In this document: positions 3 to 12,153 of the stretch, piece by piece
How positions within the stretch are numbered: position 1 is the first letter of the stretch
How the letters are laid out: the number at the start of each line of letters is the position of its first letter
Virus record (IMG/VR): IMGVR_UViG_3300037067_007163
Span: 7,496 to 71,495 of that record
DNA length: 64,000 nt
Reading direction: 5' to 3' (one strand)
Origin: a virus
Taxonomy: Duplodnaviria; Caudoviricetes
Made by a program: the position numbers and the translations under genes
The notes under the pieces: generated by a model
What the model was told of the DNA's origin: nothing
Databases searched by the model: none
The model's input: only the letters and a program-made list of their open reading frames with translations

Positions 3-3000
3 AACATTTATTCTGAACAAGTTGGTGGAAATGTTAAACCTGCTTACCTTAAAATAGAAAATCCAGCAGATGGTAATAAGTTGTTGACTAGAGAAGCACA
101 ATCACTAGGACATGATGGTGTGATTAAACAACTTGATAGTGGGGAAAAAGTGTACATTGTTTTTGATTCCAATCAAATTAAGTCAGCCACTGGTAACAAG
201 GGTACATTCAATCCTAAAGATCCAATCATTACTCATTCAGCTAACACTCAAGTATGTAGTGCAGATTGTCACGTTCACAACTCAAATGGTCGTGTGCACA
301 ATGCAAAGGCAAAGCAACCACGTCGTACATTTAATAAGAAACCAGTACAACGTAAGTTAAGCAACAAGAAGTCACCTACAAGAATAGACCCCACTCGATT
401 GGCTACGTTGCGTAGAGTGTGGACTACTGACTTAAAACGTAGGTTCAAGAGCATTGATAAGGCATTGTACCAATTGTTAGTAGTAGATGATGCTTTTGGA
501 ATCAACGGCAATAAGGTATTCAATGTATTCTGTGCAACGGGAGAAGGTGGTGGAGTAGATCCAAGCTGTTCACCTAATGATAGTGGGGGTAAGTTGGAGC
601 ACTACGAGCAAACAATGCAGGGGGAGTTCTGGCTACAAGGTTCAACTGCTATATCAGCCGATGGTGACGTTGATGACATGAATCACGAAGGTCATGCTAT
701 TCAGCAGGCACAGTACGATGTGGCCAATGCTTTTGGTATAGAGCATGAGGAGGATTGGGATAAGACAAAAGAAGAGATTCATGGGAAGCTAATTGAGGAC
801 CGCCCCGAACTACAAAAGTCATTGGACTGGATTGATCAGTACGGTGCCCCATCAAACCCCGAGCAAGAAGCAGTGGTCAAACCCTTCTATGATCATCTCA
901 AAGAAGTTGGGTTGACCCCTGAGGACTGGGAAGTAGCCAACGGCAATGGTAACCAAGACTCTCGCATTTGGGCAGCGGATAAACACGACTGGGTGAGGGT
1001 GGCAGGCAACAGCATTCAAACGGTTGGTATTGATAGCTTGAAGATGAGTGAAATTGCTGATGGTCTTTGGGATGCTTATGGTGATGATGTAGAGCAACAA
1101 TCATTTGATGTTGAAGTCATAGCTAAGGACTCTGTTGGCAAGGGTAAGAATATCTACACCAAACTCTACCGCGACGTGCCCTACCATACCATCGCTGGTA
1201 GTTCTGTCAATGCTTTGCGTGATTACGTGACCAACGCTACGGAAAATTATGACGTGGAGAAAGAGGTAGAGAGGGCAGCTAAGGAGACGGATAGAAACCC
1301 CTCAGAGGCTCAGCGTAAGGCGGGTACATATAGAAAGGGCAAGGTGTGGGTACAGGGGTTAGAGGTTGCTATAGAGTCGCCTAGAGGGTCTACGAGGAGT
1401 GGTATAGGGGCTGACGGTAAGCCTTGGTCTACTACCATGCAGCACCACTATGGTTACATTAAGCTGACAGAGTCAGAAGCAGACGGAGACCACATTGACT
1501 GCTTCCTTGGTCCAAACCCTTCCTCTGATAAGGTATTCATTGTTGATCAAACAAAAGGGCCTGACTTCAAAGAGTTTGATGAACACAAGACTCTAATTGG
1601 TTGGGACAATGTAGAAGAAGCCAAGCAAGCATACCATGACAACTTCAGTGAAGGTTGGCAAGGATTTAGTGACATCACTGAGATGACAATGCAGGAGTTC
1701 AAACAGTGGCTTAAAGAAGGCGATAGCAGTAAGCCAGTAGCAAATGCCTTCTGTCCAACAGGTAGAGGTAACGGGCAAGACAACTCTTGTAGTCCATCTG
1801 GTTTGCCGTTCAATCCAGCAGAAGCAGAGAAGACAGCTGGGCGATGGAAAGATCTTTCCAAAGGGGAAGTGGTCTATCTTAGCAAAGCAATTACTGGGAA
1901 ACCAGAACGGTACTATCTGAAAGTAAAGGTTAGCAAAACCTCTGAGGGTGAAATTGAGGGTATCATACAACAACCCTATGTTTTGGATAAATACCACAAG
2001 TTTGATAAGGGGGAGATGGTTCGGTTCTTTGGGAACGAGGTGGTTCATGTTGAGAGTCGTACAGAAGCACCCAAAGTAAAAGAGTACAAAGCAGAAAAGA
2101 GTGAGATCCCAAAGGACAGCCATACTGGAATGTGGCTCTCAGCTTGGGTGATGGGACAAACGAACCAGGTCACTCCTGCTGTAGCTAAGGCACTTTCTAA
2201 ATACACCTCTGACAAACCAGTGACCCTTTACCGAGGAATTAACACAACCTCTCCGAACCTAGGTCCGACTAAGATGCCAACAAGTTGGAGCTTATCTAAA
2301 AAGTCAGCTGCTTCATTCGGTCGGGGAACACATATGCACCCTAATCCAACTGAAGGGAGGTTGCTCAGCCAGGAGTTTAAGCCTTCTGAGATACTTGTAG
2401 ATTTGAACCACCCACAGGTGAAGGCTTATCTGCATGAGCTGGAGTACGAAGGTGAAAAAGAAGTTATTGTTAAGCCCAAAGTAAGTTTCAAAAGTTCGAA
2501 AGTGACAAAACTCACTGTTAATCAGCTCACTGCAACCTCGAACCAAAAGATGGAACGAATAACAAAGTCCCACTGGTCCAACTATGCATTGAACCAAAAG
2601 CTTCTGCAGTTGGCTAAACAAGGGGGTACGTTGGTAGTAAACTCTTCTTACTTCGCTGAGTGTGAACGTGATGAGAAGGGTCATTGTTTACCATCTGGTG
2701 AAGTAGGTGATAAGTCTAACAGTGAAGAAAGCAAAACACCAGAGTCTAGTAAGGAAGAATCAAGTGCTGGTAAGTTTGACAGAGCAAAGTGGCAAGGTAG
2801 ACGAGAGGAATGGGGTAAGTTACCAGTTGGTCAAAGAGACAACTTAGCAGATGCAGAGAACAGTGTCAAGAGTAGAGTCAGTGAGTTGCTGAAGGGGGTG
2901 CCAGAAAGACCTAATACTGGTGACTTGAGCAAAGACTTAGAAACTAGGATTGGTCAGTTATCAGATCGTGTACATCCACAGGCTGCTGACCGTATGAAGA

Positions 3001-5921
3001 CTGTTGTTAGGGATTACACTAACTTGATGAATGAAGCTGGAGTAAAACCAGAACATCAACATGCACTAGCAATGGAAGCAGTGGACCACCTAGCTGCACA
3101 AGAGTCAGAGACAATGTCTCGTCAATTAGGTGATCACGGTGTAGCACACATCAAAGGTGACATTGATGTAGCAATGCAAACCTTAAATGCCTTACCTACA
3201 AAATCCACAGCACAAGATAAGTTAGCAGCATACACTGCTTGCATCTACCACGACACAGGCTACTTAACTGAGCCCAGTCGTTCTTTCTTAGATGAAGGGC
3301 ACCCACGTTGGAGTGAGCAGTACTACAACACCAATATAAAGCCTACAGTTGCTAAGGCATTGGGTGATCGTGCTGCTAACGAAGTCAGCCACATCATTCG
3401 TACTCATGATGCTACGGACATGGATTGGAACAGCGATAGTGTAGCCTCTTCTGTTCGATTGGCAGATAACCTGGCTGTGTTCCATCGTGAGAAGTTGCCG
3501 CCTGTATTTCGTTATGTCAATGGTAACATTGATGTGCTCAAAGACTTAGGTGCTGGCAAGATCGATAAAGCAACTGCGAATGAACGAATGGTTGCCAACA
3601 TTGACAAGTCTAATCTCACAGATAAGGTCAAGTCACAACTTCGATTGGGTGCTAAAGAGGTTTCAGAGTACACACCCAAGGTAACACTAGGCATGCTTGG
3701 TGGTACATTGACGGGTATCAAGTACAAAGAGGGAACAGTTGTAGCTGAGGTCAAAGAAAGCAAGAAGGCTACGGAGATCAATAAGTTGGGCGACTTTGGT
3801 CAAAATCAATTGGCAAAGTTGGCTAAGACATTTGATGCTGATCCCAAGCAGTTCCAGAAAGACTTGAACTTCACTTTCAAGGGCAAAGACGGTCGCACTC
3901 GTCTTCGCATTGAGATGCAAAAGGCAGTCGAAAACATATTGCTGAATGCTGGTGAAAGATTCCATTTTCAAACTTCACCAGAGCAAGTCAATTCTTTTCG
4001 TCAGTGGATAGCAAAGATTCTAAAGCAATATGTCTTAGATGAAGAAGTCAGTGCAGAAGATCAGTGGTTTCAACAGTACGTTGAGGAAGGATATCGTCGT
4101 GGCGCAAGTCGTGCATTCGATGACACAAGGCCAGCAGTAAAGAAGTGGTTACAATCAGAAGAAGCCAATAAGAAATTAGACTTCTATGACGGTACACGAG
4201 CAGACTTCTTACGATCCTCCTTTGCTAGACCAGTCAGTGTTGAGAAGGTTAAGCTATTGGCAGGTCGCAGCTTCACAGATCTTAAAGGCATCAGTGATCA
4301 GATGAGTGCTAAGCTCACTCGTGGTCTCACAGATGGTTTAGTACAAGGCAAGAACAGCAAGCAAATTTACAAGGACTTAGCCAAAGACGTTGGTATTAGT
4401 GAAAGCAGGGCCAGAGCTATTGCACAAACAGAGCTAACTCGTGCACATGCATCGGGCCAGATCCAGAGTTTCAAAGACTTAGGTGTAACAAAACTAGGTG
4501 TCATGGCAGAAATAGCAACAGCACAGGATGACAGAGTTTGTGAGGCTTGCAATGACTTGAATGGTGTAGTCTTAACAGTTGATGAAGCTGAAGGAATTTT
4601 ACCTGTTCATACCTCATGTCGTTGTGCTCTCATTCCAGCTAATGTCGGGGAAGATGAAGAAGACCAAGTGCGCAGCAAGTTAGGTATCGAGAAAGCCATT
4701 GATGCTGCTACCGAAGTGCTCGGGGGTAGTGACAAGACTACATGGCCTGGAGCAGATGTTAGTATCAGTAAGACAAGACCACAAGGTATTTTCAACTCAC
4801 GTGAAGTATTGTTCAACCAACAACAAGAAATCATCATTGAGCGATTAGACCAACTGATTGATTTAGCTAACAACGCCTTATCACTAAAGGAAGATGATTC
4901 TGTAGTCAACAACACAGAACCTGTTGTGGTAGAATCTACTGTTTTGTCAAATAAAATTGTAGACTTAGTAAATGATTCTGGAACTACAGTTGACAACCGT
5001 TCCTTCTTCGCAGAATGTGATCGGGACGAGAAGGGTCGCTGTCTACCTGGTGATCCTGTAGATGGTTTGAAGAAAGAGCACCCAGAGTTTGCAGAGCACA
5101 AGTTCAATTACGTGCCGAGCCTAGGAGAAACGATTGCTAGGTACGAGCCAAATGGAACGATCACTGTGACTGATACTTTCTTTGGTCATGGTAAAGAAGA
5201 CCAACGGCAGATACTGGCACATGAGGTCGGGCATGGGCAAGTAGCTAGTCTAACAACTCCAGAGCACGCTGAGGAGTATTGGAAGTTGGTTGACTCTGAT
5301 GTGTTAGGTAAGTACGACGAAGAGAAGCAACGGTTCGTTGGATTGCATGGGCAGCGTAATGCCGATGAAGTCTTGGCTGATTTGGCAGCTGACTACTACC
5401 TTGACCCTGACAAGCTGAAGGAGCGATACCCAGTTCAATATCCGATTATCAAGAAAATTCTAACTGAGAACAGGTCTTTCTTCGCTGAATGTCAGAGGGA
5501 TGAACATGGTCGTTGTTTGCCAGAGGGAAGTAGTGGTAGTAAGAGCCAATTGGCCACAAGAACATATAAACCTAGCACAGCAGAGAAACAACGTAAGGGT
5601 GAAGCAGAGCAGTTGTTACTGGCTAAGGCAATTAAGGGTGTCAATACCGATGACAATCAACCGTTTGATATAATCAAAGGAAAGAATGGCATTGAAGTCA
5701 AAACTTTAATGGATAACAACAACGATAAAATAACCGTTCACCCTGAGAGTAGAATTAGAAAAGAGAAAGAAGCAAAGAAACTAAACCTAGACATGCATAC
5801 GGTTGCAATAGATACTCGTGCTGGGCGTAAGGTATACTATTACAAGGCTGGTGTTGGTGCTTTTCGTATTTCCAGCATGCAACGGGTTTCGCTCTCCCAA
5901 CTCAAAGAAATGCTATCATGA
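3..5921 (+). CDS. Giant MuF/SPP1 gp7-like head morphogenesis polyprotein with multiple enzyme domains (5' truncated)
   Basis: Frame is open from nt 3 (NIYSEQVGGNVKPAYLKIENP...), so the true start is upstream of the window. MuF core RAIAQTELTRAH...DDRVCEACNDLNG...PVHTSCRC at ~4400-4640. Also ART-PolyVal-like end (AYLKIENP/GHDGVI/VFDSNQIKSATGN), inorganic pyrophosphatase-like (DGDHIDCFLG...FDEHK), ART (LYRG/SWS/EKEV), HD (YHDTG), zincin (HEVGH) and C-terminal PD-(D/E)xK (PFD...IEVK). Confidence 0.85.
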   Translation, partial: NIYSEQVGGNVKPAYLKIENPADGNKLLTREAQSLGHDGVIKQLDSGEKVYIVFDSNQIKSATGNKGTFNPKDPIITHSANTQVCSADCHVHNSNGRVHNAKAKQPRRTFNKKPVQRKLSNKKSPTRIDPTRLATLRRVWTTDLKRRFKSIDKALYQLLVVDDAFGINGNKVFNVFCATGEGGGVDPSCSPNDSGGKLEHYEQTMQGEFWLQGSTAISADGDVDDMNHEGHAIQQAQYDVANAFGIEHEEDWDKTKEEIHGKLIEDRPELQKSLDWIDQYGAPSNPEQEAVVKPFYDHLKEVGLTPEDWEVANGNGNQDSRIWAADKHDWVRVAGNSIQTVGIDSLKMSEIADGLWDAYGDDVEQQSFDVEVIAKDSVGKGKNIYTKLYRDVPYHTIAGSSVNALRDYVTNATENYDVEKEVERAAKETDRNPSEAQRKAGTYRKGKVWVQGLEVAIESPRGSTRSGIGADGKPWSTTMQHHYGYIKLTESEADGDHIDCFLGPNPSSDKVFIVDQTKGPDFKEFDEHKTLIGWDNVEEAKQAYHDNFSEGWQGFSDITEMTMQEFKQWLKEGDSSKPVANAFCPTGRGNGQDNSCSPSGLPFNPAEAEKTAGRWKDLSKGEVVYLSKAITGKPERYYLKVKVSKTSEGEIEGIIQQPYVLDKYHKFDKGEMVRFFGNEVVHVESRTEAPKVKEYKAEKSEIPKDSHTGMWLSAWVMGQTNQVTPAVAKALSKYTSDKPVTLYRGINTTSPNLGPTKMPTSWSLSKKSAASFGRGTHMHPNPTEGRLLSQEFKPSEILVDLNHPQVKAYLHELEYEGEKEVIVKPKVSFKSSKVTKLTVNQLTATSNQKMERITKSHWSNYALNQKLLQLAKQGGTLVVNSSYFAECERDEKGHCLPSGEVGDKSNSEESKTPESSKEESSAGKFDRAKWQGRREEWGKLPVGQRDNLADAENSVKSRVSELLKGVPERPNTGDLSKDLETRIGQLSDRVHPQAADRMKTVVRDYTNLMNEAGVKPEHQHALAMEAVDHLAAQESETMSRQLGDHGVAHIKGDIDVAMQTLNALPTKSTAQDKLAAYTACIYHDTGYLTEPSRSFLDEGHPRWSEQYYNTNIKPTVAKALGDRAANEVSHIIRTHDATDMDWNSDSVASSVRLADNLAVFHREKLPPVFRYVNGNIDVLKDLGAGKIDKATANERMVANIDKSNLTDKVKSQLRLGAKEVSEYTPKVTLGMLGGTLTGIKYKEGTVVAEVKESKKATEINKLGDFGQNQLAKLAKTFDADPKQFQKDLNFTFKGKDGRTRLRIEMQKAVENILLNAGERFHFQTSPEQVNSFRQWIAKILKQYVLDEEVSAEDQWFQQYVEEGYRRGASRAFDDTRPAVKKWLQSEEANKKLDFYDGTRADFLRSSFARPVSVEKVKLLAGRSFTDLKGISDQMSAKLTRGLTDGLVQGKNSKQIYKDLAKDVGISESRARAIAQTELTRAHASGQIQSFKDLGVTKLGVMAEIATAQDDRVCEACNDLNGVVLTVDEAEGILPVHTSCRCALIPANVGEDEEDQVRSKLGIEKAIDAATEVLGGSDKTTWPGADVSISKTRPQGIFNSREVLFNQQQEIIIERLDQLIDLANNALSLKEDDSVVNNTEPVVVESTVLSNKIVDLVNDSGTTVDNRSFFAECDRDEKGRCLPGDPVDGLKKEHPEFAEHKFNYVPSLGETIARYEPNGTITVTDTFFGHGKEDQRQILAHEVGHGQVASLTTPEHAEEYWKLVDSDVLGKYDEEKQRFVGLHGQRNADEVLADLAADYYLDPDKLKERYPVQYPIIKKILTENRSFFAECQRDEHGRCLPEGSSGSKSQLATRTYKPSTAEKQRKGEAEQLLLAKAIKGVNTDDNQPFDIIKGKNGIEVKTLMDNNNDKITVHPESRIRKEKEAKKLNLDMHTVAIDTRAGRKVYYYKAGVGAFRISSMQRVSLSQLKEMLS

Positions 5922-6043
5922 CTAAATTAGAACTGTTAGATGCAATTACGGAACTTGCTGAGGAGAAAGCAATTTTAGATGCCAAGCTAGCTTTCCTACA
6001 AAACGAGTTGGACGAAGGTAATTACGAAGAGGATCAGTCATGA
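5918..6043 (+). CDS. Small acidic protein (41 aa), candidate immunity/accessory
   Basis: Not in ORF track. MTKLELLDAITELAEEKAILDAKLAFLQNELDEGNYEEDQS, with ATGA overlaps at both ends. Confidence 0.6.
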   Translation: MTKLELLDAITELAEEKAILDAKLAFLQNELDEGNYEEDQS

Positions 6044-6366
6044 GCTATTGGCTGGAAGACGCAGACGGCAAGTATCTTGGTGACTTAGCTACCAACGTAG
6101 GAATCAACCAACTACGTGATGCTGGTAGTCCTGCACTCAAGACATTTTTAGACCAAGGGTTTGCTGATGAAGACTTAATTGAGGAAATGGTCAATGAGTC
6201 TCTCAACAATCCAAAGTTATCTTACATTGCAGCAATGTTTGACGAAGTGAAAGCACCTGTCTATGTAACAGACGGTTGCGGTCAAGCAGATGAAGTTGAG
6301 AACAAATCAAAACCAATTCTGGCTGAACAACTCAGTCAAATAATCAATCGAAAGGAAGTACAATGA
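6040..6366 (+). CDS. Acidic hypothetical protein, candidate immunity protein for the MuF C-terminal nuclease
   Basis: 108 aa, D/E-rich, translationally coupled downstream of the toxin-like domain; the role is inferred from position. Confidence 0.5.
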   Translation: MSYWLEDADGKYLGDLATNVGINQLRDAGSPALKTFLDQGFADEDLIEEMVNESLNNPKLSYIAAMFDEVKAPVYVTDGCGQADEVENKSKPILAEQLSQIINRKEVQ

Positions 6367-6842
6367 CAAAGTTAAAAGTACAAGAGAAGAATACCCAAGT
6401 GTTAAGCCTATTGCAAGCAGCAGTGAATGGTGAAACTACTTCACGCAACCTATACTTTGCTCGTGCTGTGTTTTGGGATAGCATTGGATTTCACAAGCTG
6501 GCAGAATACTATGAGAAGCAAAGCCAAGAGGATCATTGTCAGCTAAGTGCTGACCGCATGGCTTTCTTAGGAGAGCAGCCAGCCTTTAGCCCTTCTCCAG
6601 TACAGTCATTGACAGAAGAGTCTATTGCAGAACAGTACCTAATTGATTTGCAAGTGGAAGTGGCTTTGGCTGAGAATTACACCGAGAGCATTAAGACTGC
6701 TGAGACTCTTGGTGATTACATCACTGCTCAAATTTGGAAGGGTGTACTACAATCAACCCAAGAGCACTGTGATTATCTTCAACAGGAATTGAAGAAAATT
6801 GAACTTGTTGGTGAGCAGAATTACCTTACTGCATGGGTGTAA
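6363..6842 (+). CDS. bfr: Bacterioferritin-like (ferritin superfamily) protein
   Basis: Aligns by eye with Bfr along its whole length: NGETTSRNLY, GFHKL, DRMAFLGEQP, DLQVE, GDYIT, EHCDYLQQELKKIELVGEQNYL. Confidence 0.85.
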   Translation: MTKLKVQEKNTQVLSLLQAAVNGETTSRNLYFARAVFWDSIGFHKLAEYYEKQSQEDHCQLSADRMAFLGEQPAFSPSPVQSLTEESIAEQYLIDLQVEVALAENYTESIKTAETLGDYITAQIWKGVLQSTQEHCDYLQQELKKIELVGEQNYLTAWV

Positions 6843-6875
6843 ATTTCAATTGTTTCCTACGAAGAAGAATCAGTT

Positions 6876-7160
6876 ATGATTGCAGGAGCAAGTACCTTGG
6901 AAACGCCAAAAGTGAGACTGTCACCAATCCAACAAAGGATGCTACAGGTATTGAGTGATGGCTTACCTCATAGCAGGGAAGCAATGCTAGAGTGCCTTCA
7001 GGATGACCAGTGCAGTCAGACAGGTCATTTGGCTCACTTGACTGCCATTCGTAAGGTATTACGCCCAAAAGGTGAGGATGTGCTTTGTGAGTACCGACAG
7101 CGGCGTCCTTTCTACAGACACGTTCGTCTTTTACCATCTGCATATGACGGGTATCAGTGA
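6876..7160 (+). CDS. Hypothetical protein, possible winged-helix
   Basis: LSPIQQRMLQVLSDG...HLTAIRKVLR pattern; coupled to the next gene. Confidence 0.45.
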   Translation: MIAGASTLETPKVRLSPIQQRMLQVLSDGLPHSREAMLECLQDDQCSQTGHLAHLTAIRKVLRPKGEDVLCEYRQRRPFYRHVRLLPSAYDGYQ

Positions 7161-7576
7161 TGAAAAGAACTTATCAGCAAATCTGCTCCATGACTGAAGA
7201 ACAGCTTAGAGCACTGTCAAAGAAGAGCAGACGAACTGCTATTCGGGTATTGTACAGTAGGGCAGTAAGTAAGCATAACAAAGTTACCTACATTCAGACA
7301 CTGCAATTTTCTAATCAACCTAAGATAAGCAGGCACATTCGCAAAAAGCGTAAACACAGCCGCAAGTACGAAGACTATTTGAAATCAAAGCATTGGAAAT
7401 CCTTCCGAAAGCAGGTCATCAAAGAATCGGGAGACCAATGTGAGATGTGTTTAATCGTTCTTCATCGGGGGTTACAAGTGCATCATCTCCACTACCTGAC
7501 TTTGGGCAATGAATCTCGTGGGGACGTAAAAGTGCTTTGTAGAACCTGCCATAGCAACCTGCATGCTAAATACTGA
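7157..7576 (+). CDS. HNH endonuclease
   Basis: CEMC...LQVHHLHY...LCRTCH motifs. Confidence 0.85.
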   Translation: MMKRTYQQICSMTEEQLRALSKKSRRTAIRVLYSRAVSKHNKVTYIQTLQFSNQPKISRHIRKKRKHSRKYEDYLKSKHWKSFRKQVIKESGDQCEMCLIVLHRGLQVHHLHYLTLGNESRGDVKVLCRTCHSNLHAKY

Positions 7577-7666
7577 TGGGTCGATTATCTAAAGTATTTA
7601 GATTCTGTCGTTCTGACAACTTTTCTACTTTACTCTTCTCAAGAGATAATTTAAGTTGTCAGGTGT

Positions 7667-9718
7667 ATGGAGCACCTGACAGTCAATATCTCTGGTAAAG
7701 TCAGGCAGGTCAACGAGGGTGGTAAGTCATTCCTCGTTGCCCCGCTTTCTTTAATTGTCCCTGGAGTCCTATCTGGATCCAAGGGGCCATTGCTCTACGA
7801 GCCTTCTGAGATAGCTAAGAATCATCAACAGTGGAATGGTATGCCATTGTTGGTTTATCATCCCCACGACCCCATTACTAATCAGCCTCTATCAGCCCAA
7901 GATCCTGATCAAGGGCCTTCTATCATAGAGAAACAAGGGGTGGGTGAAGTTCGCAATACCCATGTAAAACATGGAAAGTTGCGAGCAGAAGGTTGGTTTG
8001 ACGTAGAGAAGACCACGAAGGTTGACCCTCGTATCTTGGCGGATCTTAAAGCCAACCGTCCTTGTGAACTATCGACAGGTTTGTTCACGGACAACGAGGA
8101 TACTCCGGGCAACTTTCGTGGTCGTCCTTACACCCAAAAAGCAAGGAACTATCGCGCAGACCACGTGGCCATACTGCCCGACCAAATTGGAGCCTGCAGT
8201 ATTAAAGATGGATGTGGAGTTTTGGTAAACAAAGCATCCTCTTCACTGCAAGAGAAGATTCATCTGCTAGCAAATTCTTCTTTGGTAATCAATCCTGATT
8301 GGGTTGAAGATCATGACATTTGGGAAAAGGCAAAGAATGCAGCTGATAAGAGTGACTATGACGATGACAGTTACTATGCTGTTGTAACCAGCATCTACAA
8401 GAATATGGGTGGTGGCATTAAGGAGAGCAAGATGACCAAGAATGAAAAACTACACATCCTTGCTAACGAGAACCCTAACCGTGACGAGTTGGGTAGGTTT
8501 GCTAGTGGTTCCGGTGGCGGTAGTAAGGGTAGTGGCAAGGGTAGTGCAAAGGTTCACGGTGCAGCCAAGGGTGGTCATCAGAGTTGGGCCAATGACGTTC
8601 ATACAATAAATCAAGGAACTCATAACATGTCTTCTACCCTTCAAGATAAGTTGGCCGGTATTCTGGGTTCAGTTGAGAATGCTGATGTAAAAGAAGACAA
8701 CAGTGTCACTAAGTTGAAGCAAGCTGATGGCCCTAAAACAACACTTGCACCCGTTGGATCTAGTGAACAGGAAACAGAACTAAGACTGCGAGATGGTGGC
8801 GAAGTTGGGTCAGATGAAATAGATACAGAAGACCATGACATGATTGAGAAAGGTGCTGAGTCACCGTTGAAGGCTGATGCTACAGCACTAGGAGCAGAAG
8901 AGATCAAACCGAAACCATTTAAGAAACCCGAGCAGAGTAATGCTCAAACACATAACCAAGAAGAAGGAGGCCACACGATGGCTACTGTGACTTTGAACGC
9001 GGAAGAGCGAGAGGCTGTCGTAAACGGTCTCATTGAAGGTGAGTGCTGCTTCGAGGAGAGTGAGCGTGCTGTGCTCAACTCCTTGAGTGATCGCACTCTT
9101 GCACGTCTAACCTTGAATGCTAAGGAAATGCCGAAGTTCATTCAAGACAAGATTGATGCCAAGAAGGCAAAGGAAGATTCTGCCATGGAAGAAGCAGACT
9201 CTGAGGATGAAGACGAAGAAGAGGAAGTCGAAAACGAAGATCAGAAGACTGAGGAAAAGGATCGAGCTGGTCTTGGTGTACGTGCTGGTAAGGGCACTGG
9301 CAAGAACGAATCTCAAGCCCAAGGCAATGTGAAGCCTTGCGGTGAGTTGAATCCGAAGATGCCTACGGATAATCAGCTCAGTGCTGACGATCGTCAATTC
9401 TTGGCCATTGGCCGTAAGGTAGTCTCTGATCGTCGATCCGACATGATCAAGACCATTACTGCCAACAGTCGCAATCCTTTTGATAAGAAGGAACTTGCCA
9501 GCATGGAATTTAACCAATTGGAAAAGCTTAGCCAATTGGCTGCTGTGGAAAGTGAAGCAGTTGTTCCTTCCTTCACTCTCAATCGCTTCAGTGGGTTCAT
9601 GGGTGCTGCTGCTGGCGTTGGCCAGGTTAACAATGACAGTGGTGTGGACGATGACGTCTTGGAAACTCCAACAATCAACTACAGCGAGATTGCTTCGAAG
9701 GGAATTCAAAAACGATAG
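7667..9718 (+). CDS. DUF2213-type prohead protease/scaffold fusion
   Basis: N-terminal ELSTG...NYRADHVAILPDQIGAC domain, long acidic scaffold-like C-terminus, located just before decoration and capsid genes. Confidence 0.75.
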   Translation: MEHLTVNISGKVRQVNEGGKSFLVAPLSLIVPGVLSGSKGPLLYEPSEIAKNHQQWNGMPLLVYHPHDPITNQPLSAQDPDQGPSIIEKQGVGEVRNTHVKHGKLRAEGWFDVEKTTKVDPRILADLKANRPCELSTGLFTDNEDTPGNFRGRPYTQKARNYRADHVAILPDQIGACSIKDGCGVLVNKASSSLQEKIHLLANSSLVINPDWVEDHDIWEKAKNAADKSDYDDDSYYAVVTSIYKNMGGGIKESKMTKNEKLHILANENPNRDELGRFASGSGGGSKGSGKGSAKVHGAAKGGHQSWANDVHTINQGTHNMSSTLQDKLAGILGSVENADVKEDNSVTKLKQADGPKTTLAPVGSSEQETELRLRDGGEVGSDEIDTEDHDMIEKGAESPLKADATALGAEEIKPKPFKKPEQSNAQTHNQEEGGHTMATVTLNAEEREAVVNGLIEGECCFEESERAVLNSLSDRTLARLTLNAKEMPKFIQDKIDAKKAKEDSAMEEADSEDEDEEEEVENEDQKTEEKDRAGLGVRAGKGTGKNESQAQGNVKPCGELNPKMPTDNQLSADDRQFLAIGRKVVSDRRSDMIKTITANSRNPFDKKELASMEFNQLEKLSQLAAVESEAVVPSFTLNRFSGFMGAAAGVGQVNNDSGVDDDVLETPTINYSEIASKGIQKR

Positions 9719-9787
9719 CAATTGATTGGTTTCAATTGCTTTGTAACTTAAACTTGAAACTGAATTTTTGATAAGGGAGAATTTGAG

Positions 9788-10273
9788 ATGGCAAAAGGCA
9801 ACGAAATCATTGTGAGCGCAGACCCCAAGGGTGTATTCCTTGAGGGGACTGTGTATGGTACGCCGAAGCCTGGCACCGTGATGCAGGTTCGAGCAACAGC
9901 CTTGATTGGTGGGCGTCCTGTGTGGGAAGCCTATAACGTGACTGGTGATGGATACCCTGGCATTATTGCTGTATTGCTGCCTGACCAATTGCAAGGCAGC
10001 TTAGCCACTACTGCTTATGTCACTGGTACCCACTGCTTCCTGTATTGCCCGATCGCTGGTGAAGAGCTGAATATGCTCGTAGCTGACGTTTCTGGTACGG
10101 GCACTAGTGGTAGTGAAGCTAAGGCTATTGGTGACATCTTGATGGTAGATGATACCACTGGCAAGTTGGTGGATGACAGTTCTGGCTTGAGGAAGCCTTT
10201 TGTACTGTTGGAAACTCAAGCAGAGCCTATCTCAGCAGATGCTCTGTTGCACTGCATGTACACTGGTCAATAG
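9788..10273 (+). CDS. Head decoration/cement protein (putative)
   Basis: 161 aa between scaffold and MCP; strong SD (GGGAG). Confidence 0.6.
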   Translation: MAKGNEIIVSADPKGVFLEGTVYGTPKPGTVMQVRATALIGGRPVWEAYNVTGDGYPGIIAVLLPDQLQGSLATTAYVTGTHCFLYCPIAGEELNMLVADVSGTGTSGSEAKAIGDILMVDDTTGKLVDDSSGLRKPFVLLETQAEPISADALLHCMYTGQ

Positions 10274-10351
10274 CCAGTTAACAATCAAACAAGACGATTT
10301 TTGAAATTACCTTGGCTCCGGCCAAATTAACTAAGAGAAGGAGAATTCTGA

Positions 10352-11611
10352 ATGTTCACAGATTTTATCGAGAATGGACGAGCGACCGGAGCCGTCGCAA
10401 CCCACATCATGGGTGGCAATGTTCCTGGTGGCTATGACAAGGGTTATGATCGCCCTTACATCAATCGCAAGGGTCAACGGGCTGTCACGATCAACACTGG
10501 TAAGATGGTGTTGAACGAGAAAGGCACGTATGTTCCTGAGAAGCGTGAAGTGTTGATCAGCAACCTGTTGGAACAGGGTATTTACAATCCTGTGTTCAAT
10601 GCCACTTCTCTTCGCAAGGAAGAGTGGATTAGCTTGGACCAAGTAGTGCTGCGTGAGGCTCGTCTTCGCCTTCGGGCATGGGCTGACCTCTCCGCAGCGA
10701 GTAGCTACGGCGGTTTCAACGGCATGGCTAAGAGCATGCTGGAGCATGAGACCATGAGTGATCCCGGCGAAGCCTTGGTCGACATGGACGGTTTGACCCA
10801 AGGTCATACGGATAGCCCGACGTTCCAACTGCAGGGTATTCCGTTGCCGATTACCCACTCGGACTTCTGGTACTCTTCGCGTCGGTTGGCGGAGTCTCGT
10901 AATACGGGTACTCCGTTGGATACGACGATGGGTGAGGCTGCTGGTCGTCGTGTTGCGGAAATGATTGAGCAGACCCTCATTGGCACCACTACGGGCATGA
11001 CCTATGGTGGCACGATGACTCAGTATGGTGGTTACGGTTCCGGTCGTAATGGTGACCGTACCTCGACAGTCTATGGGTACACCAATTACCCTGACCGCCA
11101 CACGTTTGCTAACACCACCGCCCCGACCAGCACGAACTGGTCCCCGGAATGGACGCTGAAAGACGTGTTGGCCATGCGTGACCTGTTGCGCAACGGCCGA
11201 TTCTATGGTCCTTACATGCTGTATCACAGCACGGATTGGGATCAGTACCTTGACAGTGATTACTACGCTGTTCGTACCTCTGGTGCCTTGGCTCCTACCC
11301 AGACGTTGCGTGAGCGTTTGATGAAGATTGGCGACGTTCAAGATGTTCGACGTTTGGACTTCTTGGGATCGTCAACCAATCCGTTCAACCTCCTGTTGGT
11401 CCAGATGACTCCCGACGTTTGTCGGGCGATCAATGGTTTGGACCTCACGACGGTTCAGTGGGAATCCGTTGGTGGCATGCGATTGAATTTTAAAGTGATG
11501 GCAATCCAGGTACCACAAATCCGTTCGACTCAAGCGGGCCGTTGTGGGATTTGTCACGCAACCGTAACAGCAGGTACGGATAGCACCTATCCGACTGGCA
11601 CCAATGCCTAA
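10352..11611 (+). CDS. Major capsid protein, HK97 fold, encapsulin/linocin-M18-like
   Basis: LRKEEWISLDQVV, PLPITHSDF, SRRLAESRNTGTPLDTTMGEAAGRRVAEMIE resemble family-1 encapsulin/linocin-like capsids; AAGGAG SD; position in module. Confidence 0.85.
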   Translation: MFTDFIENGRATGAVATHIMGGNVPGGYDKGYDRPYINRKGQRAVTINTGKMVLNEKGTYVPEKREVLISNLLEQGIYNPVFNATSLRKEEWISLDQVVLREARLRLRAWADLSAASSYGGFNGMAKSMLEHETMSDPGEALVDMDGLTQGHTDSPTFQLQGIPLPITHSDFWYSSRRLAESRNTGTPLDTTMGEAAGRRVAEMIEQTLIGTTTGMTYGGTMTQYGGYGSGRNGDRTSTVYGYTNYPDRHTFANTTAPTSTNWSPEWTLKDVLAMRDLLRNGRFYGPYMLYHSTDWDQYLDSDYYAVRTSGALAPTQTLRERLMKIGDVQDVRRLDFLGSSTNPFNLLLVQMTPDVCRAINGLDLTTVQWESVGGMRLNFKVMAIQVPQIRSTQAGRCGICHATVTAGTDSTYPTGTNA

Positions 11612-11667
11612 GTAAGGGCATGATTAAATGTAAACTGGTCACTTGTTGAGTGATTAGTCTAGTATCT

Positions 11668-11704
11668 CCCTCTGCCACTTGACGCTGCAACAGGTGGCAG
11701 AGGG
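11668..11704 (+). terminator. 11-bp stem-loop after MCP
   Basis: ccctctgccac ... gtggcagaggg inverted repeat; no clear U-tract. Confidence 0.45.
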
Positions 11705-11757
11705 TTACGGTAAACATAAGCAGCAATACCTTTGACACTGATTGGGGAGCGAATATC

Positions 11758-12153
11758 ATGGCGAAGTACAGAATCTTGCGTGGTTGTCATGCAGAAGGTT
11801 TCTATCCTGCTGGTCATCCGCAGGCTGGTAATCCCATTGTCTATGAACCTGGTGAGGTAATCGAGACAAACAACTGCTTGCTGAAGCACAATAGCCGTCC
11901 TGGCACGCAAGGTGCCTTGGGCGATAAGTTTCAACTGGTAGACGATGATCGTATTCAACCGACGGAAAAGATTAAAGTCAAGCCAGTTGAAGAACATGTT
12001 CAAGAACCCAGTCAGCCTGAGGATGGTCTCAGTGGTATGAGCGTGCCAGAATTGAAGGAATTGGCTCGAGGTGATAGCATTGAGCTGGGCCAAGCCAAAA
12101 CGAAGGCTGACATTCTCAAGGTCATCCGCGACGCCTATGCTGCCACTGCGTAG
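11758..12153 (+). CDS. Hypothetical protein with C-terminal Rho-N/HeH-like domain
   Basis: LSGMSVPELKELA...KTKADILKVI; common immediately after phage MCPs. Confidence 0.6.
   Translation: MAKYRILRGCHAEGFYPAGHPQAGNPIVYEPGEVIETNNCLLKHNSRPGTQGALGDKFQLVDDDRIQPTEKIKVKPVEEHVQEPSQPEDGLSGMSVPELKELARGDSIELGQAKTKADILKVIRDAYAATA

Follow-up and report, generated by a model that had tools for sequence, protein, structure and literature searches.

A predicted haem-free ferritin among the head genes of a phage with an encapsulin-like capsid protein

Phage-borne ferritins have so far been viewed as scattered host-derived metabolic genes. In a 64,000-nt stretch of DNA from an uncultured landfill phage (IMGVR_UViG_3300037067_007163; hereafter the window), a first-pass annotation reported a bacterioferritin (Bfr) homolog between MuF and the prohead protease, in the same operon as an encapsulin-like major capsid protein (MCP). 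What does a ferritin do among head genes: is it virion cargo, or does it act in the infected cell? The genes concerned, all on the + strand, are the following.

3–5921, +, 3′ part of the gene for a polyvalent MuF head protein with ART-PolyVal, InPase and MuF domains and three RDxxG[HR]C linker tags
5918–6043, +, 41-aa acidic ORF, joined to the polyvalent gene and to g108 by ATGA overlaps read from the sequence
6040–6366, +, g108, 108-aa acidic ORF, family unassigned by Pfam and PHROG
6363–6842, +, haem-less Bfr-type ferritin gene, 159 aa; E24, E56, H58, E99, T132 and H135 invariant within the clade
6876–7160, +, g94, small protein; nearly all related phages keep its gene at this place, after MuF and before the protease-scaffold gene
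7157–7576, +, HNH endonuclease gene (PHROG HNH families, E down to 9e-10)
7667–9718, +, putative prohead protease-scaffold protein, 683 aa; N-terminal ~200 aa conserved, remainder acidic/low-complexity; one RDxxGRF tag
9788–10273, +, g161, head-module protein kept in relatives, directly 5′ of the capsid gene
10352–11611, +, MCP, DUF6260, HK97 fold; residues 86–404 nearest to family-1 encapsulin shells, with ~85 extra N-terminal residues

Genetic context of the ferritin gene

The ferritin gene starts with an ATG that is preceded by AAGGAAG and overlaps the stop codon of the upstream ORF (ATGA). Chained overlaps of this kind link it to the polyvalent MuF gene, and the operon ends at its 3′ side with the capsid gene. 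As promoter or terminator signals around the ferritin gene did not exceed chance and the genes are ATGA-joined, we assign the ferritin to one transcription unit with the head genes, in line with the proposed common operon with the MCP.

The order of genes given at first pass was correct, but the 41- and 108-aa ORFs, g94 and the HNH gene intervene between the three landmarks. A MuF domain is present, but it is only part of a polyvalent protein at least 2,400 aa long, which matches Pfam InPase (E = 3.7e-50), Phage_Mu_F (5e-15) and ART-PolyVal. The ORF of this protein begins at record position 6091, before the window starts. The 683-aa protein, the position of which is conserved in relatives, matches phrog_760 (4.7e-15). 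Its identity as a protease is weakly supported, the matches to DUF2213 (3.4e-6) and phrog_2229 'head maturation protease' (0.0064) being weak, and a PDB sequence search gave no match. For the smaller genes, phmmer matched g94 in most related loci although no Pfam family did, and g161 returned nothing from Pfam or PHROG. g108 was likewise without a match in these two collections, and phmmer found it in none of the related loci, including other ferritin-bearing phages. No homologue of the HNH gene was found in related loci, and the insertion was seen in the present phage only.

Family and metal site of the ferritin

The ferritin is a full-length Bfr homolog, as first claimed. Residues 16–148 cover positions 3–141 of 142 in the Pfam Ferritin profile (PF00210; E = 1.5e-18, 67.5 bits against a gathering cut-off of 24.5), and a PDB sequence search matched about 50 bacterioferritins (best E = 5e-15). 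Bacterioferritins are also the nearest solved structures to its AlphaFold2 model (pLDDT 92), which superposes on them with TM 0.84–0.88 and contains the four-helix bundle and short fifth helix of Bfr (helices 10–40, 44–68 with a break at 55–57, 88–115, 119–149 and 151–156). The NCBIfam bfr equivalog TIGR00754 scored 66.7 bits, below its cut-off of 125.55. A Dps identity was rejected: NF041388 scored 23 bits against a cut-off of 170, the basic tail is absent, and the acidic pI of 4.6 resembles that of storage ferritins, which argues against a DNA-binding Dps type.

Four ligands of the Bfr di-iron set (E18, E51, H54, E94, E127 and H130) are kept, E18, H54, E94 and H130 corresponding to phage E24, H58, E99 and H135, and Tyr31, at the position of Bfr Tyr25, is invariant in the ferritin clade. 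The set as a whole is incomplete. The position of E127 is taken by T132, an invariant Thr, and that of E51 is variable or shifted; in the clade alignment an invariant Glu, E56, lies two residues before the His, between the variable positions 55 and 57. The MAFFT alignment places a two-residue deletion between the E51 position and H54, which removes M52 and K53 in 24 of 24 clade members, while position 52 is Arg or Gln in the wider lineage. The deletion falls exactly where helix B is predicted to be non-helical (residues 55–57). Met52, the axial haem ligand at the Bfr dimer interface, is therefore missing. The by-eye calls made at first pass were accurate: E18, E94 and both His residues kept, Thr in place of E127, and a region shortened by about 2 aa without the haem-ligand Met.

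The metal site thus appears remodelled yet strictly conserved. Because both bridging-carboxylate positions of Bfr are altered, it could be inactive or bind another metal. Judged from sequence, the phage gene encodes a Bfr-derived, haem-free ferritin that falls outside bacterioferritin sensu stricto by its TIGR00754 score, the loss of Met52 and the ligand set.

Haem-free subunits of the Bfr family include Shewanella SoBfr1 (PDB 9iig), P. aeruginosa FtnA (3r2h) and the A. baumannii Ftn chain (9bts_a). The phage protein shares with them the Bfr-type fold, the short E helix and the absence of the Met52 haem ligand; their di-iron sites work with fewer than six canonical ligands, and the phage site also lacks part of the set. 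In contrast to these subunits, to which it is ~25–28% identical, it is phage-encoded and has the two-residue deletion in the ExxH motif of helix B and the invariant Thr at 127. Neither a partner haem-binding subunit nor a Bfd gene was found in the phage genome.

Distribution of the ferritin and affinity of the capsid protein

The ferritin gene is under purifying selection (dN/dS 0.05 against a strain of 85% nucleotide identity). Protein identity to two sister phages is 58–62% for the ferritin and 68% for the capsid protein, which rank second and first in conservation within the head module. The GC content of the gene (42.5%) is near that of the window (44.6%), so recent import is not indicated. 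The ferritin belongs to a small lineage (98% support) that occurs on phage-like contigs only, wherever the context is readable, and a long branch of 0.63 substitutions per site separates it from cellular Bfr (identity ~25–30%).

Within the phage group, the ferritin is confined to one capsid-protein subclade (96% support). It was absent from all 10 related phage genomes, of which 6 have a completeness of 90% or more, and not found in about two dozen related head modules. Sporadic occurrence in relatives had been named at first pass as a point that would refute the proposal, and the result is mixed: the gene is missing from these relatives, but in the closest subclade it is fixed and always occupies the same slot. 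Restriction to one subclade and absence from the 10 related genomes mark it as an accessory gene. As it was gained inside a ferritin-free phage group, an ancestral cargo link between phages and encapsulins is unlikely on the evidence of this locus.

In some relatives the slot is occupied by an ADP-ribosyltransferase, an ATLF-like zincin, a class-3 lipase or a methyltransferase. We propose that the ferritin owes its location to a recombination hot spot behind MuF, at which accessory and effector genes are exchanged. More distant phages have the ferritin too, again with MuF or effector genes as neighbours. Taken together, the gene has such neighbours in at least six separate contexts and two gene orders. 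In an unrelated phage, the portal of which is of P22 type, a related Bfr-like gene directly follows the one for the capsid protein.

The capsid protein is a member of DUF6260 (PF19774, 35.9 bits against a gathering cut-off of 26.6) and matches phrog_771, a virion structural protein; its synteny is conserved in relatives. The encapsulin profile NF041155 (encap_f1) reached 20 bits against a cut-off of 100, and PF04454 gave nothing at E up to 0.1. The top match of phmmer in the PDB was nevertheless EncA (E = 0.004), and ranks 1–22 of the Foldseek search were encapsulins or encapsulin-derived engineered cages (best E = 3.7e-18), followed at rank 23 by the first phage capsid, Sf11 (3.7e-15). By VIA, the D. 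quercicolus encapsulin gave Z 24.1 (rmsd 3.1 Å over 268 residues, 20% identity) versus Z 20.1 for Sf11, the best phage capsid. Among solved structures, the protein is nearer to encapsulin shells than to any phage capsid, and in structural comparison ordinary capsids do not come before encapsulins. The description 'encapsulin-like' therefore fits its structure but not its family.

Possible roles of the ferritin

Our favoured reading, held tentatively, is that the ferritin may well be a late-expressed, haem-free iron sink or antioxidant, an accessory protein of the phage. This reading builds on the observed fold, residue pattern, purifying selection, operon position, distribution and phage-restricted lineage; cage assembly, ferroxidase activity and cytoplasmic action are what we infer. 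The protein would be made together with the late head genes, its gene being ATGA-coupled to that of the polyvalent MuF protein, and its Bfr-type four-helix bundle would assemble into a ferritin-type cage. Fe(II) might be oxidised at the remodelled di-iron site and the iron stored, with E24, H58, E99 and H135 as putative terminal ligands, T132 in place of the second bridge, and E56 as the probable single carboxylate bridge, supplied from the locally unwound helix B. Since the Met52 haem ligand is deleted, the store would not be emptiable by the haem/Bfd electron route, and the ferritin could serve as a one-way iron sink in the cytoplasm of the infected cell. Fenton damage to replicating and packaged DNA would thereby be reduced in the iron-rich, mostly anoxic landfill leachate. 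Haem-free Bfr subunits specialised for oxidation are known to function with a reduced ligand set, and neither Glu128 nor His131 faces the site in SoBfr1 (PMC12120770). In phages, genes for ferritin, Dps and bfr have been interpreted as iron/oxidative-stress accessory genes (PMC8008677; PMC10904782; preprints). However, MuF/effector neighbours in at least six contexts, together with the relative behind a capsid gene, would be unexpected for a purely cytoplasmic 'metabolic' gene. If the ferritin is a cytoplasmic sink, iron sequestration would join the accessory functions of phages in iron-rich anoxic habitats, and the locus would represent a natural experiment in rebuilding a Bfr ferroxidase site.

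A buffered iron supply for radical SAM enzymes encoded by the phage itself might be a further benefit of the sink. The supply of Fe-S enzymes had been suggested before, and radical SAM genes were present in 4 of 4 ferritin-bearing lineages versus 3 of 10 ferritin-free relatives, a weak co-occurrence among cases that are not phylogenetically independent. That these three ferritin-free relatives also have radical SAM enzymes speaks against the link.

It is doubtful, though worth serious attention, that the ferritin is virion cargo, enclosed in the procapsid with the MuF polyvalent protein and then retained in the particle or travelling with it. It would shield the packaged genome from iron-catalysed oxidation, as a phage counterpart of iron-storing encapsulins, and the locus would then matter directly for how encapsulin cargo systems arose and how DNA is protected in virions. 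Translational coupling to the MuF polyvalent gene is consistent with this role, as proteins of that class are predicted to be packaged (PMC5512222), and so are the MuF/effector neighbours in diverged phages with two gene orders, the enzyme types in the slot of relatives, which are typical of packaged polyvalent proteins, a conservation equal to that of structural proteins, and the capsid-adjacent position of the related gene in an unrelated phage. The capsid protein is nearest to encapsulins carrying ferritin-like cargo, and a few family-1 encapsulin operons are known with Bfr cargo bearing a targeting peptide (PMC8346489). Weak structural matches to Dps-like domains within proteins annotated as prohead protease, and the detection of the ferritin-like gp346 of phage G in particles (PMC12484599), point in the same direction. 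Like the present ferritin, gp346 is a ferritin-superfamily phage protein, but the structural match is weak (E = 0.018), and gp346 is a 239-aa protein of a Dps-like subfamily, annotated as DNA-binding and encoded outside the MuF slot.

Of the first-pass proposal, the head-operon ferritin and the encapsulin-like capsid are supported, but cargo loading has no direct support: neither a targeting peptide nor a tag nor a fusion was found. A regex search of all head-module proteins returned no encapsulin-type targeting motif (e.g. GSL, LTVGSL-type), in agreement with the lack of a canonical cargo-loading peptide noted earlier. The ferritin has no N- or C-terminal extension and stops at helix E (...NYLxxW(R)). 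The RDxxGR[FWC] tag occurs three times in the polyvalent protein, once in the scaffold and not in the ferritin. Longer fused homologues were not found in a weak search, and no ferritin domain was found in the scaffold proteins of relatives, so the ferritin shows neither the fusion to MuF, portal or scaffold nor the common tag of packaged effectors. In addition, a 12-nm 24-mer would be too large to exit via the portal, and the capsids of most relatives dispense with the ferritin gene.

The family-1 encapsulin systems with ferritin-like or Bfr cargo (M. xanthus EncA/B/C/D, Q. thermotolerans IMEF and the operons in PMC8346489) also combine a structurally similar HK97-fold shell with a ferritin-family gene upstream in the operon. 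Cargo genes of this kind are expected to adjoin the shell gene in operons devoid of phage morphogenesis genes, whereas the present ferritin gene, the product of which has no targeting peptide, is separated by 3.5 kb and five genes from a downstream shell gene that misses the encapsulin cut-offs. It belongs to a tailed-phage head module, complete with genes for portal, MuF, protease-scaffold and connector. With the MuF polyvalent proteins and neighbouring effectors (Iyer et al. 2017, PMC5512222) it has in common its place in the genome and its expression with the late head genes, but not their fusions (weak search) or linker tag; a ferritin-family domain is not listed in that survey. We regard it as improbable that a free-standing, cage-forming ferritin resides inside a capsid built from the phage shell protein that is, among those known, most closely related to family-1 encapsulins. 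Such an arrangement would be a living example of 'capsid plus ferritin cargo', a possible source of domesticated iron-storing encapsulins, and would exemplify a broader practice among tailed phages, not described so far, of placing ferritin-superfamily proteins in the head.

There is only a slight chance that the ferritin is a haem-free subunit co-assembling with host Bfr subunits, as in natural heteromeric Bfrs, so that less haem per cage would block Bfd-dependent iron release or host iron homeostasis would be otherwise rewired. Heteromeric cages of haem-free and haem-binding Bfr subunits are documented (PMC12120770, PMC6529640, PMC11303784), the A. baumannii heteropolymer is matched at 1.7e-14 in its haem-free Ftn-type chain (9bts_a) versus 3.3e-7 in its haem-binding chain (9bts_A), and the Met52 deletion and T127 are both invariant, but the long branch and the low identity to cellular Bfr make precise co-assembly less likely. 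A non-iron role for which the bundle would have been recruited, be it immunity to or chaperoning of a polyvalent toxin domain or other metal or redox chemistry, is very unlikely: both Bfr bridging carboxylates are replaced and the gene directly follows small acidic ORFs, but the four terminal metal ligands and Tyr31 are invariant, the ferritin persists beside MuF proteins without a C-terminal toxin domain (e.g. the 622-aa protein of L002), and g108 is not co-conserved with it.

Other viral genes of the ferritin superfamily include bfr of a Bathyarchaeia virus (PMC10904782), Dps and Mn-catalase of gut phages (PMC8008677), and ferritin of AOB and myxobacterial phages (preprints). As in the present case, the viral bfr, ferritin and Dps genes are phage-carried, under purifying selection and interpreted as controlling iron or oxidative stress. 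They are described as recently host-derived or as located among metabolic or replication genes, whereas the present ferritin, with its altered metal site and constant position beside MuF in the head operon, belongs to a phage-restricted lineage of its own. What this locus adds is a haem-less, Bfr-derived lineage that is phage-restricted wherever its context is readable, a constant tie of the ferritin to the head-morphogenesis/MuF effector region across diverged phages, and its company with a capsid protein structurally closer to encapsulins than to solved phage capsids.

Head operon and capsid protein

The source record is a 71.5-kb IMG/VR virus, 82% complete per CheckV, and the window spans its bases 7,496-71,495. 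Upstream of the window, its + strand carries a sigma factor gene, the portal gene (Phage_portal_3), a 106-aa ORF and the 5′ part of a very long ORF, which crosses into the window, stops at 5921 and encodes at least 2,400 residues. As this product contains ART-PolyVal, InPase and Phage_Mu_F domains, it is a MuF polyvalent protein sensu Iyer et al. 2017 (PMC5512222). The sigma factor, located 5′ of the portal gene (L063:2-805), belongs to the sigma-70 family and has regions 2 and 4. The genes 3′ of the polyvalent gene are ordered as follows.

Genes of the head operon downstream of the MuF polyvalent gene (window positions)
start of the series: 41-aa ORF
6040-6366: 108-aa ORF (g108)
6363-6842, + strand: ferritin, 159 aa
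6876-7160: g94
7157-7576: HNH endonuclease
7667-9718: putative protease-scaffold, 683-aa DUF2213 protein
9788-10273: g161
10352-11611: capsid protein

Three consecutive ATGA stop/start overlaps (5918-6366) link the polyvalent gene, the 41-aa ORF, g108 and the ferritin gene, implying translational coupling of the four genes, and AAGGAAG lies upstream of the ferritin ATG. A promoter and terminator scan of the head block gave no signal above chance. The HNH endonuclease gene between g94 and the scaffold gene is found in this phage only; the lack of a homologue in every related locus suggests a recent insertion of a homing endonuclease.

The capsid protein falls in DUF6260 and below the encapsulin family cut-offs, and its PDB sequence matches at E < 0.01 are type-1 encapsulins only. 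Family-1 encapsulins or engineered cages derived from them occupied places 1-22 in a Foldseek search with the capsid model, led by M. xanthus EncA (3.7e-18), while the first phage capsid was Sf11 (3.7e-15). By an independent all-against-representatives alignment, the D. quercicolus encapsulin matched the model with Z 24.1 (rmsd 3.1 Å over 268 residues, 20% identity), compared with Z 20.1 and 17.7 for the phage capsids Sf11 and TW1. The first-pass description of this capsid as encapsulin-like is justified as a structural statement, made on a model of moderate quality (pLDDT 72). Despite this likeness, the locus is a complete phage head module. The capsid protein has an N-terminal extension of about 85 residues (residues 1-85; 10352-10606) ahead of the encapsulin-like core; this extension is absent from encapsulins, is partly a beta-hairpin and is modelled at low confidence.

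Ferritin lineage and metal site

The first-pass annotation had noted a bacterioferritin (Bfr) homologue in the head operon, and this observation is confirmed. The protein belongs to a Bfr lineage of its own that is restricted to phages in every readable context; its metal site is remodelled, and its gene keeps a constant position in the head operon. It passes the Pfam Ferritin model (67.5 bits) and scores 66.7 bits against the bacterioferritin equivalog, under the cut-off of 125.55. In the PDB, the top sequence matches are without exception bacterioferritins or Bfr-family ferritins (25-29% identity), and no PHROG family matches the protein. The AlphaFold2 model, built with 20 relatives, has a pLDDT of 92 and superimposes onto Bfr structures with TM scores of 0.84-0.88.

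Compared with P. aeruginosa BfrB, the terminal ligands E24, H58, E99 and H135 are kept, and the E127 position is T132. When more distant relatives were included in a MAFFT alignment, the two-residue gap fell between the position of E51 and H54, so that Met52 and Lys53 are lost. Seven residues (E24, E56, H58, E99, T132, Q133 and H135) are invariant in 24 clade members, and positions 55 and 57 vary. In the model, helix B is unwound at residues 55-57, from which we infer that E56 could reach the metal site from the helix break as a single bridging carboxylate. Thr127 on its own is not phage-specific, being present in ordinary haem-binding Bfrs such as that of Achromobacter (5zur). In the heteromeric Bfr of Shewanella, the haem-free subunit is able to specialise in iron oxidation; its site is reported to be formed by conserved Glu18, Glu51, Glu94 and His54, and Glu128 and His131 to point away from it (PMC12120770). 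The altered ligands of the phage ferritin therefore need not mean inactivity. A conserved N-terminal 'VQENN' considered as a tag was dropped, as most of it lines up with the 'MKGD/N' helix cap that ordinary Bfr conserves. The nearest Bfr representatives seem to owe their apparent N-terminal extensions to mis-called starts.

Among 1.84 billion cluster representatives, searched exhaustively with a profile, only seven reached E < 1e-30, including one false positive, P0025, a repeat protein of 2,247 aa with 19 stretches, which was discarded. The lineage scored 163-229 bits and ordinary Bfr at most 86. The 24 deletion-bearing sequences and three full-length representatives (P0024, P0026 and P0027) form a clade with 98% support, whose stem of 0.63 substitutions per site separates it from 65 other Bfr representatives. 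These three and the nearest outgroups (P0041, P0042 and P0091) have Arg/Gln at 52 and Thr/Ser at 127. Every readable context of the lineage is phage-like.

Genomic contexts of the ferritin lineage
immediately 3′ of a MuF polyvalent gene
between an ART gene (5′) and a g94-sized ORF (3′)
immediately 5′ of a MuF/Peptidase_Mx gene, with zeta-toxin and DUF3626 proteins upstream
5′ of C39-peptidase and NUDIX genes
L064:6001-6465: Bfr-like gene P0041, just 3′ of the capsid gene (Phage_capsid_3) of an unrelated phage
adjoining DUF3310 and CxxCxxCC protein genes

Radical SAM, epimerase and CsrA genes are common to the window and the contig with the C39-peptidase and NUDIX genes. P0041, with the signature E-E-R-H-E-T-Q, lies within the head module of that phage, which has a P22-type portal (L064:999-5361) and is unrelated to the one studied here; this is a second, independent head-module placement of a Bfr-like gene.

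Distribution among relatives and the slot 3′ of MuF

A capsid-protein pattern search found 47 related viral loci (36-93% identity), in which the common head-module order is MuF protein, g94, protease-scaffold, g161, capsid, g131, g139 and g121. The ferritin-clade HMM matched one of the 47 (L005), and none of ten related genomes, of which six are at least 90% complete, has a Pfam Ferritin match. The three phages that carry the ferritin group together as one clade in the capsid-protein tree (SH-aLRT 96), surrounded by ferritin-free relatives, a topology that fits a single gain of the gene. IMG/VR holds just three further contigs with the ferritin gene, from two samples (3300014204 and 3300014205), and landfill leachate is indicated by related contigs binned into MAGs. 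The bins of capsid relatives (Opitutaceae, Peribacteria and Melioribacteraceae) were rejected as host evidence, since whole phage contigs had probably been binned. A megablast search of 50,697 phage records with 6000-12000 as query gave no match, and tblastn of the ferritin against known phages gave distant matches only (at most 29% identity), several being bacterial contigs filed as phage.

The ferritin is an old resident under constraint and not a recent acquisition. Its dN/dS is 0.05 against strain L060 (85% nucleotide identity), and its GC content is in line with the genome. It is 62% and 58% identical to its counterparts in two sister phages, exceeded only by the capsid protein (68%); the MuF region (46-49%) and g94, g161 and the connector proteins (38-50%) are lower.

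In ferritin-free relatives, the junction between MuF and g94 is either tight or occupied by other stand-alone genes, among them small ORFs and the following.

Genes in the MuF-g94 slot of relatives
L006:4120-6099: ADP-ribosyltransferase
L025:6027-6731: ATLF-like zincin
L027:6639-7457: class-3 lipase
L042:7195-7785: methyltransferase

The slot is a hypervariable effector cassette site 3′ of MuF, and because other genes fill it in relatives, the ferritin occupies an exchangeable accessory or effector position. The 1,041-aa protease-scaffold of a sister phage (L002:10912-14043) shares a homologous stretch with the N-terminal portion of the window's polyvalent protein (E 1e-9); MuF and scaffold proteins apparently exchange effector-type domains. 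Where domains of the polyvalent protein meet (2667, 5022 and 5496), a short tag, [RK]DxxG[RHK][FWC], is repeated in the form F-A-E-C-x-R-D-E-x-G-x-C-L-P. It is found once in the scaffold (8480; NPNRDELGRFASG), at the N-terminus of the stand-alone ART of a relative (L006:4195) and in the MuF ORF of L027 (L027:6137), and may be a processing or packaging signal.

Proposed iron handling and possible packaging

The first-pass annotation proposed that the ferritin may be packaged, for iron and ROS protection and supply of the phage Fe-S enzymes, or may poison host Bfr, a reading that is supported in part. We favour an accessory iron-handling protein made alongside the late head proteins. A haem-free ferritin would probably act as a one-way iron store and could reduce free Fe(II) and limit Fenton chemistry inside the infected cell, in a habitat that is iron-rich and largely anoxic. 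The Dps, Mn-catalase and bfr genes of phages have been suggested to play comparable roles (PMC8008677, PMC10904782). Dps-like DNA binding is disfavoured by the acidic pI of 4.6.

Enclosure of the ferritin in the capsid is the rival hypothesis. In its favour, MuF and effector genes persistently accompany the ferritin, a free-standing, full-length Bfr-type subunit, and two unrelated phage lineages place such a gene in the head module. Against it, the protein has no address peptide, tag or fusion, and most relatives do without the gene. A regex for encapsulin-type targeting peptides found none in any head protein, the scaffold proteins of relatives contain no ferritin domain, and no fused form appeared among proteins of 364-2000 aa, a search that is weak as evidence. 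As the gain of the gene took place inside a phage group that lacks ferritin, the locus is at most an analogue, not an ancestor, of encapsulin cargo systems. Packaging, if shown, would make this ferritin of high interest. In BFVD, the ferritin model weakly matched (E 0.006-0.02) ferritin- or Dps-like domains in long uncultured-Caudovirales proteins of 290-763 aa annotated as 'prohead protease' or 'Dps', which serve as leads only.

The phage encodes two radical SAM enzymes, and iron supply to them by the ferritin is weakly supported by gene content: radical SAM genes occur in 4/4 ferritin-bearing lineages and 3/10 ferritin-free relatives, which are phylogenetically non-independent cases, and the contrast fell from an initial 4/4 versus 1/8 when two more relatives were added. 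A role as an immunity protein was rejected, as the gene persists beside MuF proteins without a toxin domain.

Neither the Bfd ferredoxin (PF04324) nor a CxxCxxCC domain (PF03692) was found in the phage record. On two contigs (L065:3176-4113 and L066:330-1267), P0042, another member of the wider lineage, is followed by the gene of a 149-aa CxxCxxCC protein (PF03692, putative Fe/Zn-chelating), which could be a conserved redox partner in the role of Bfd.
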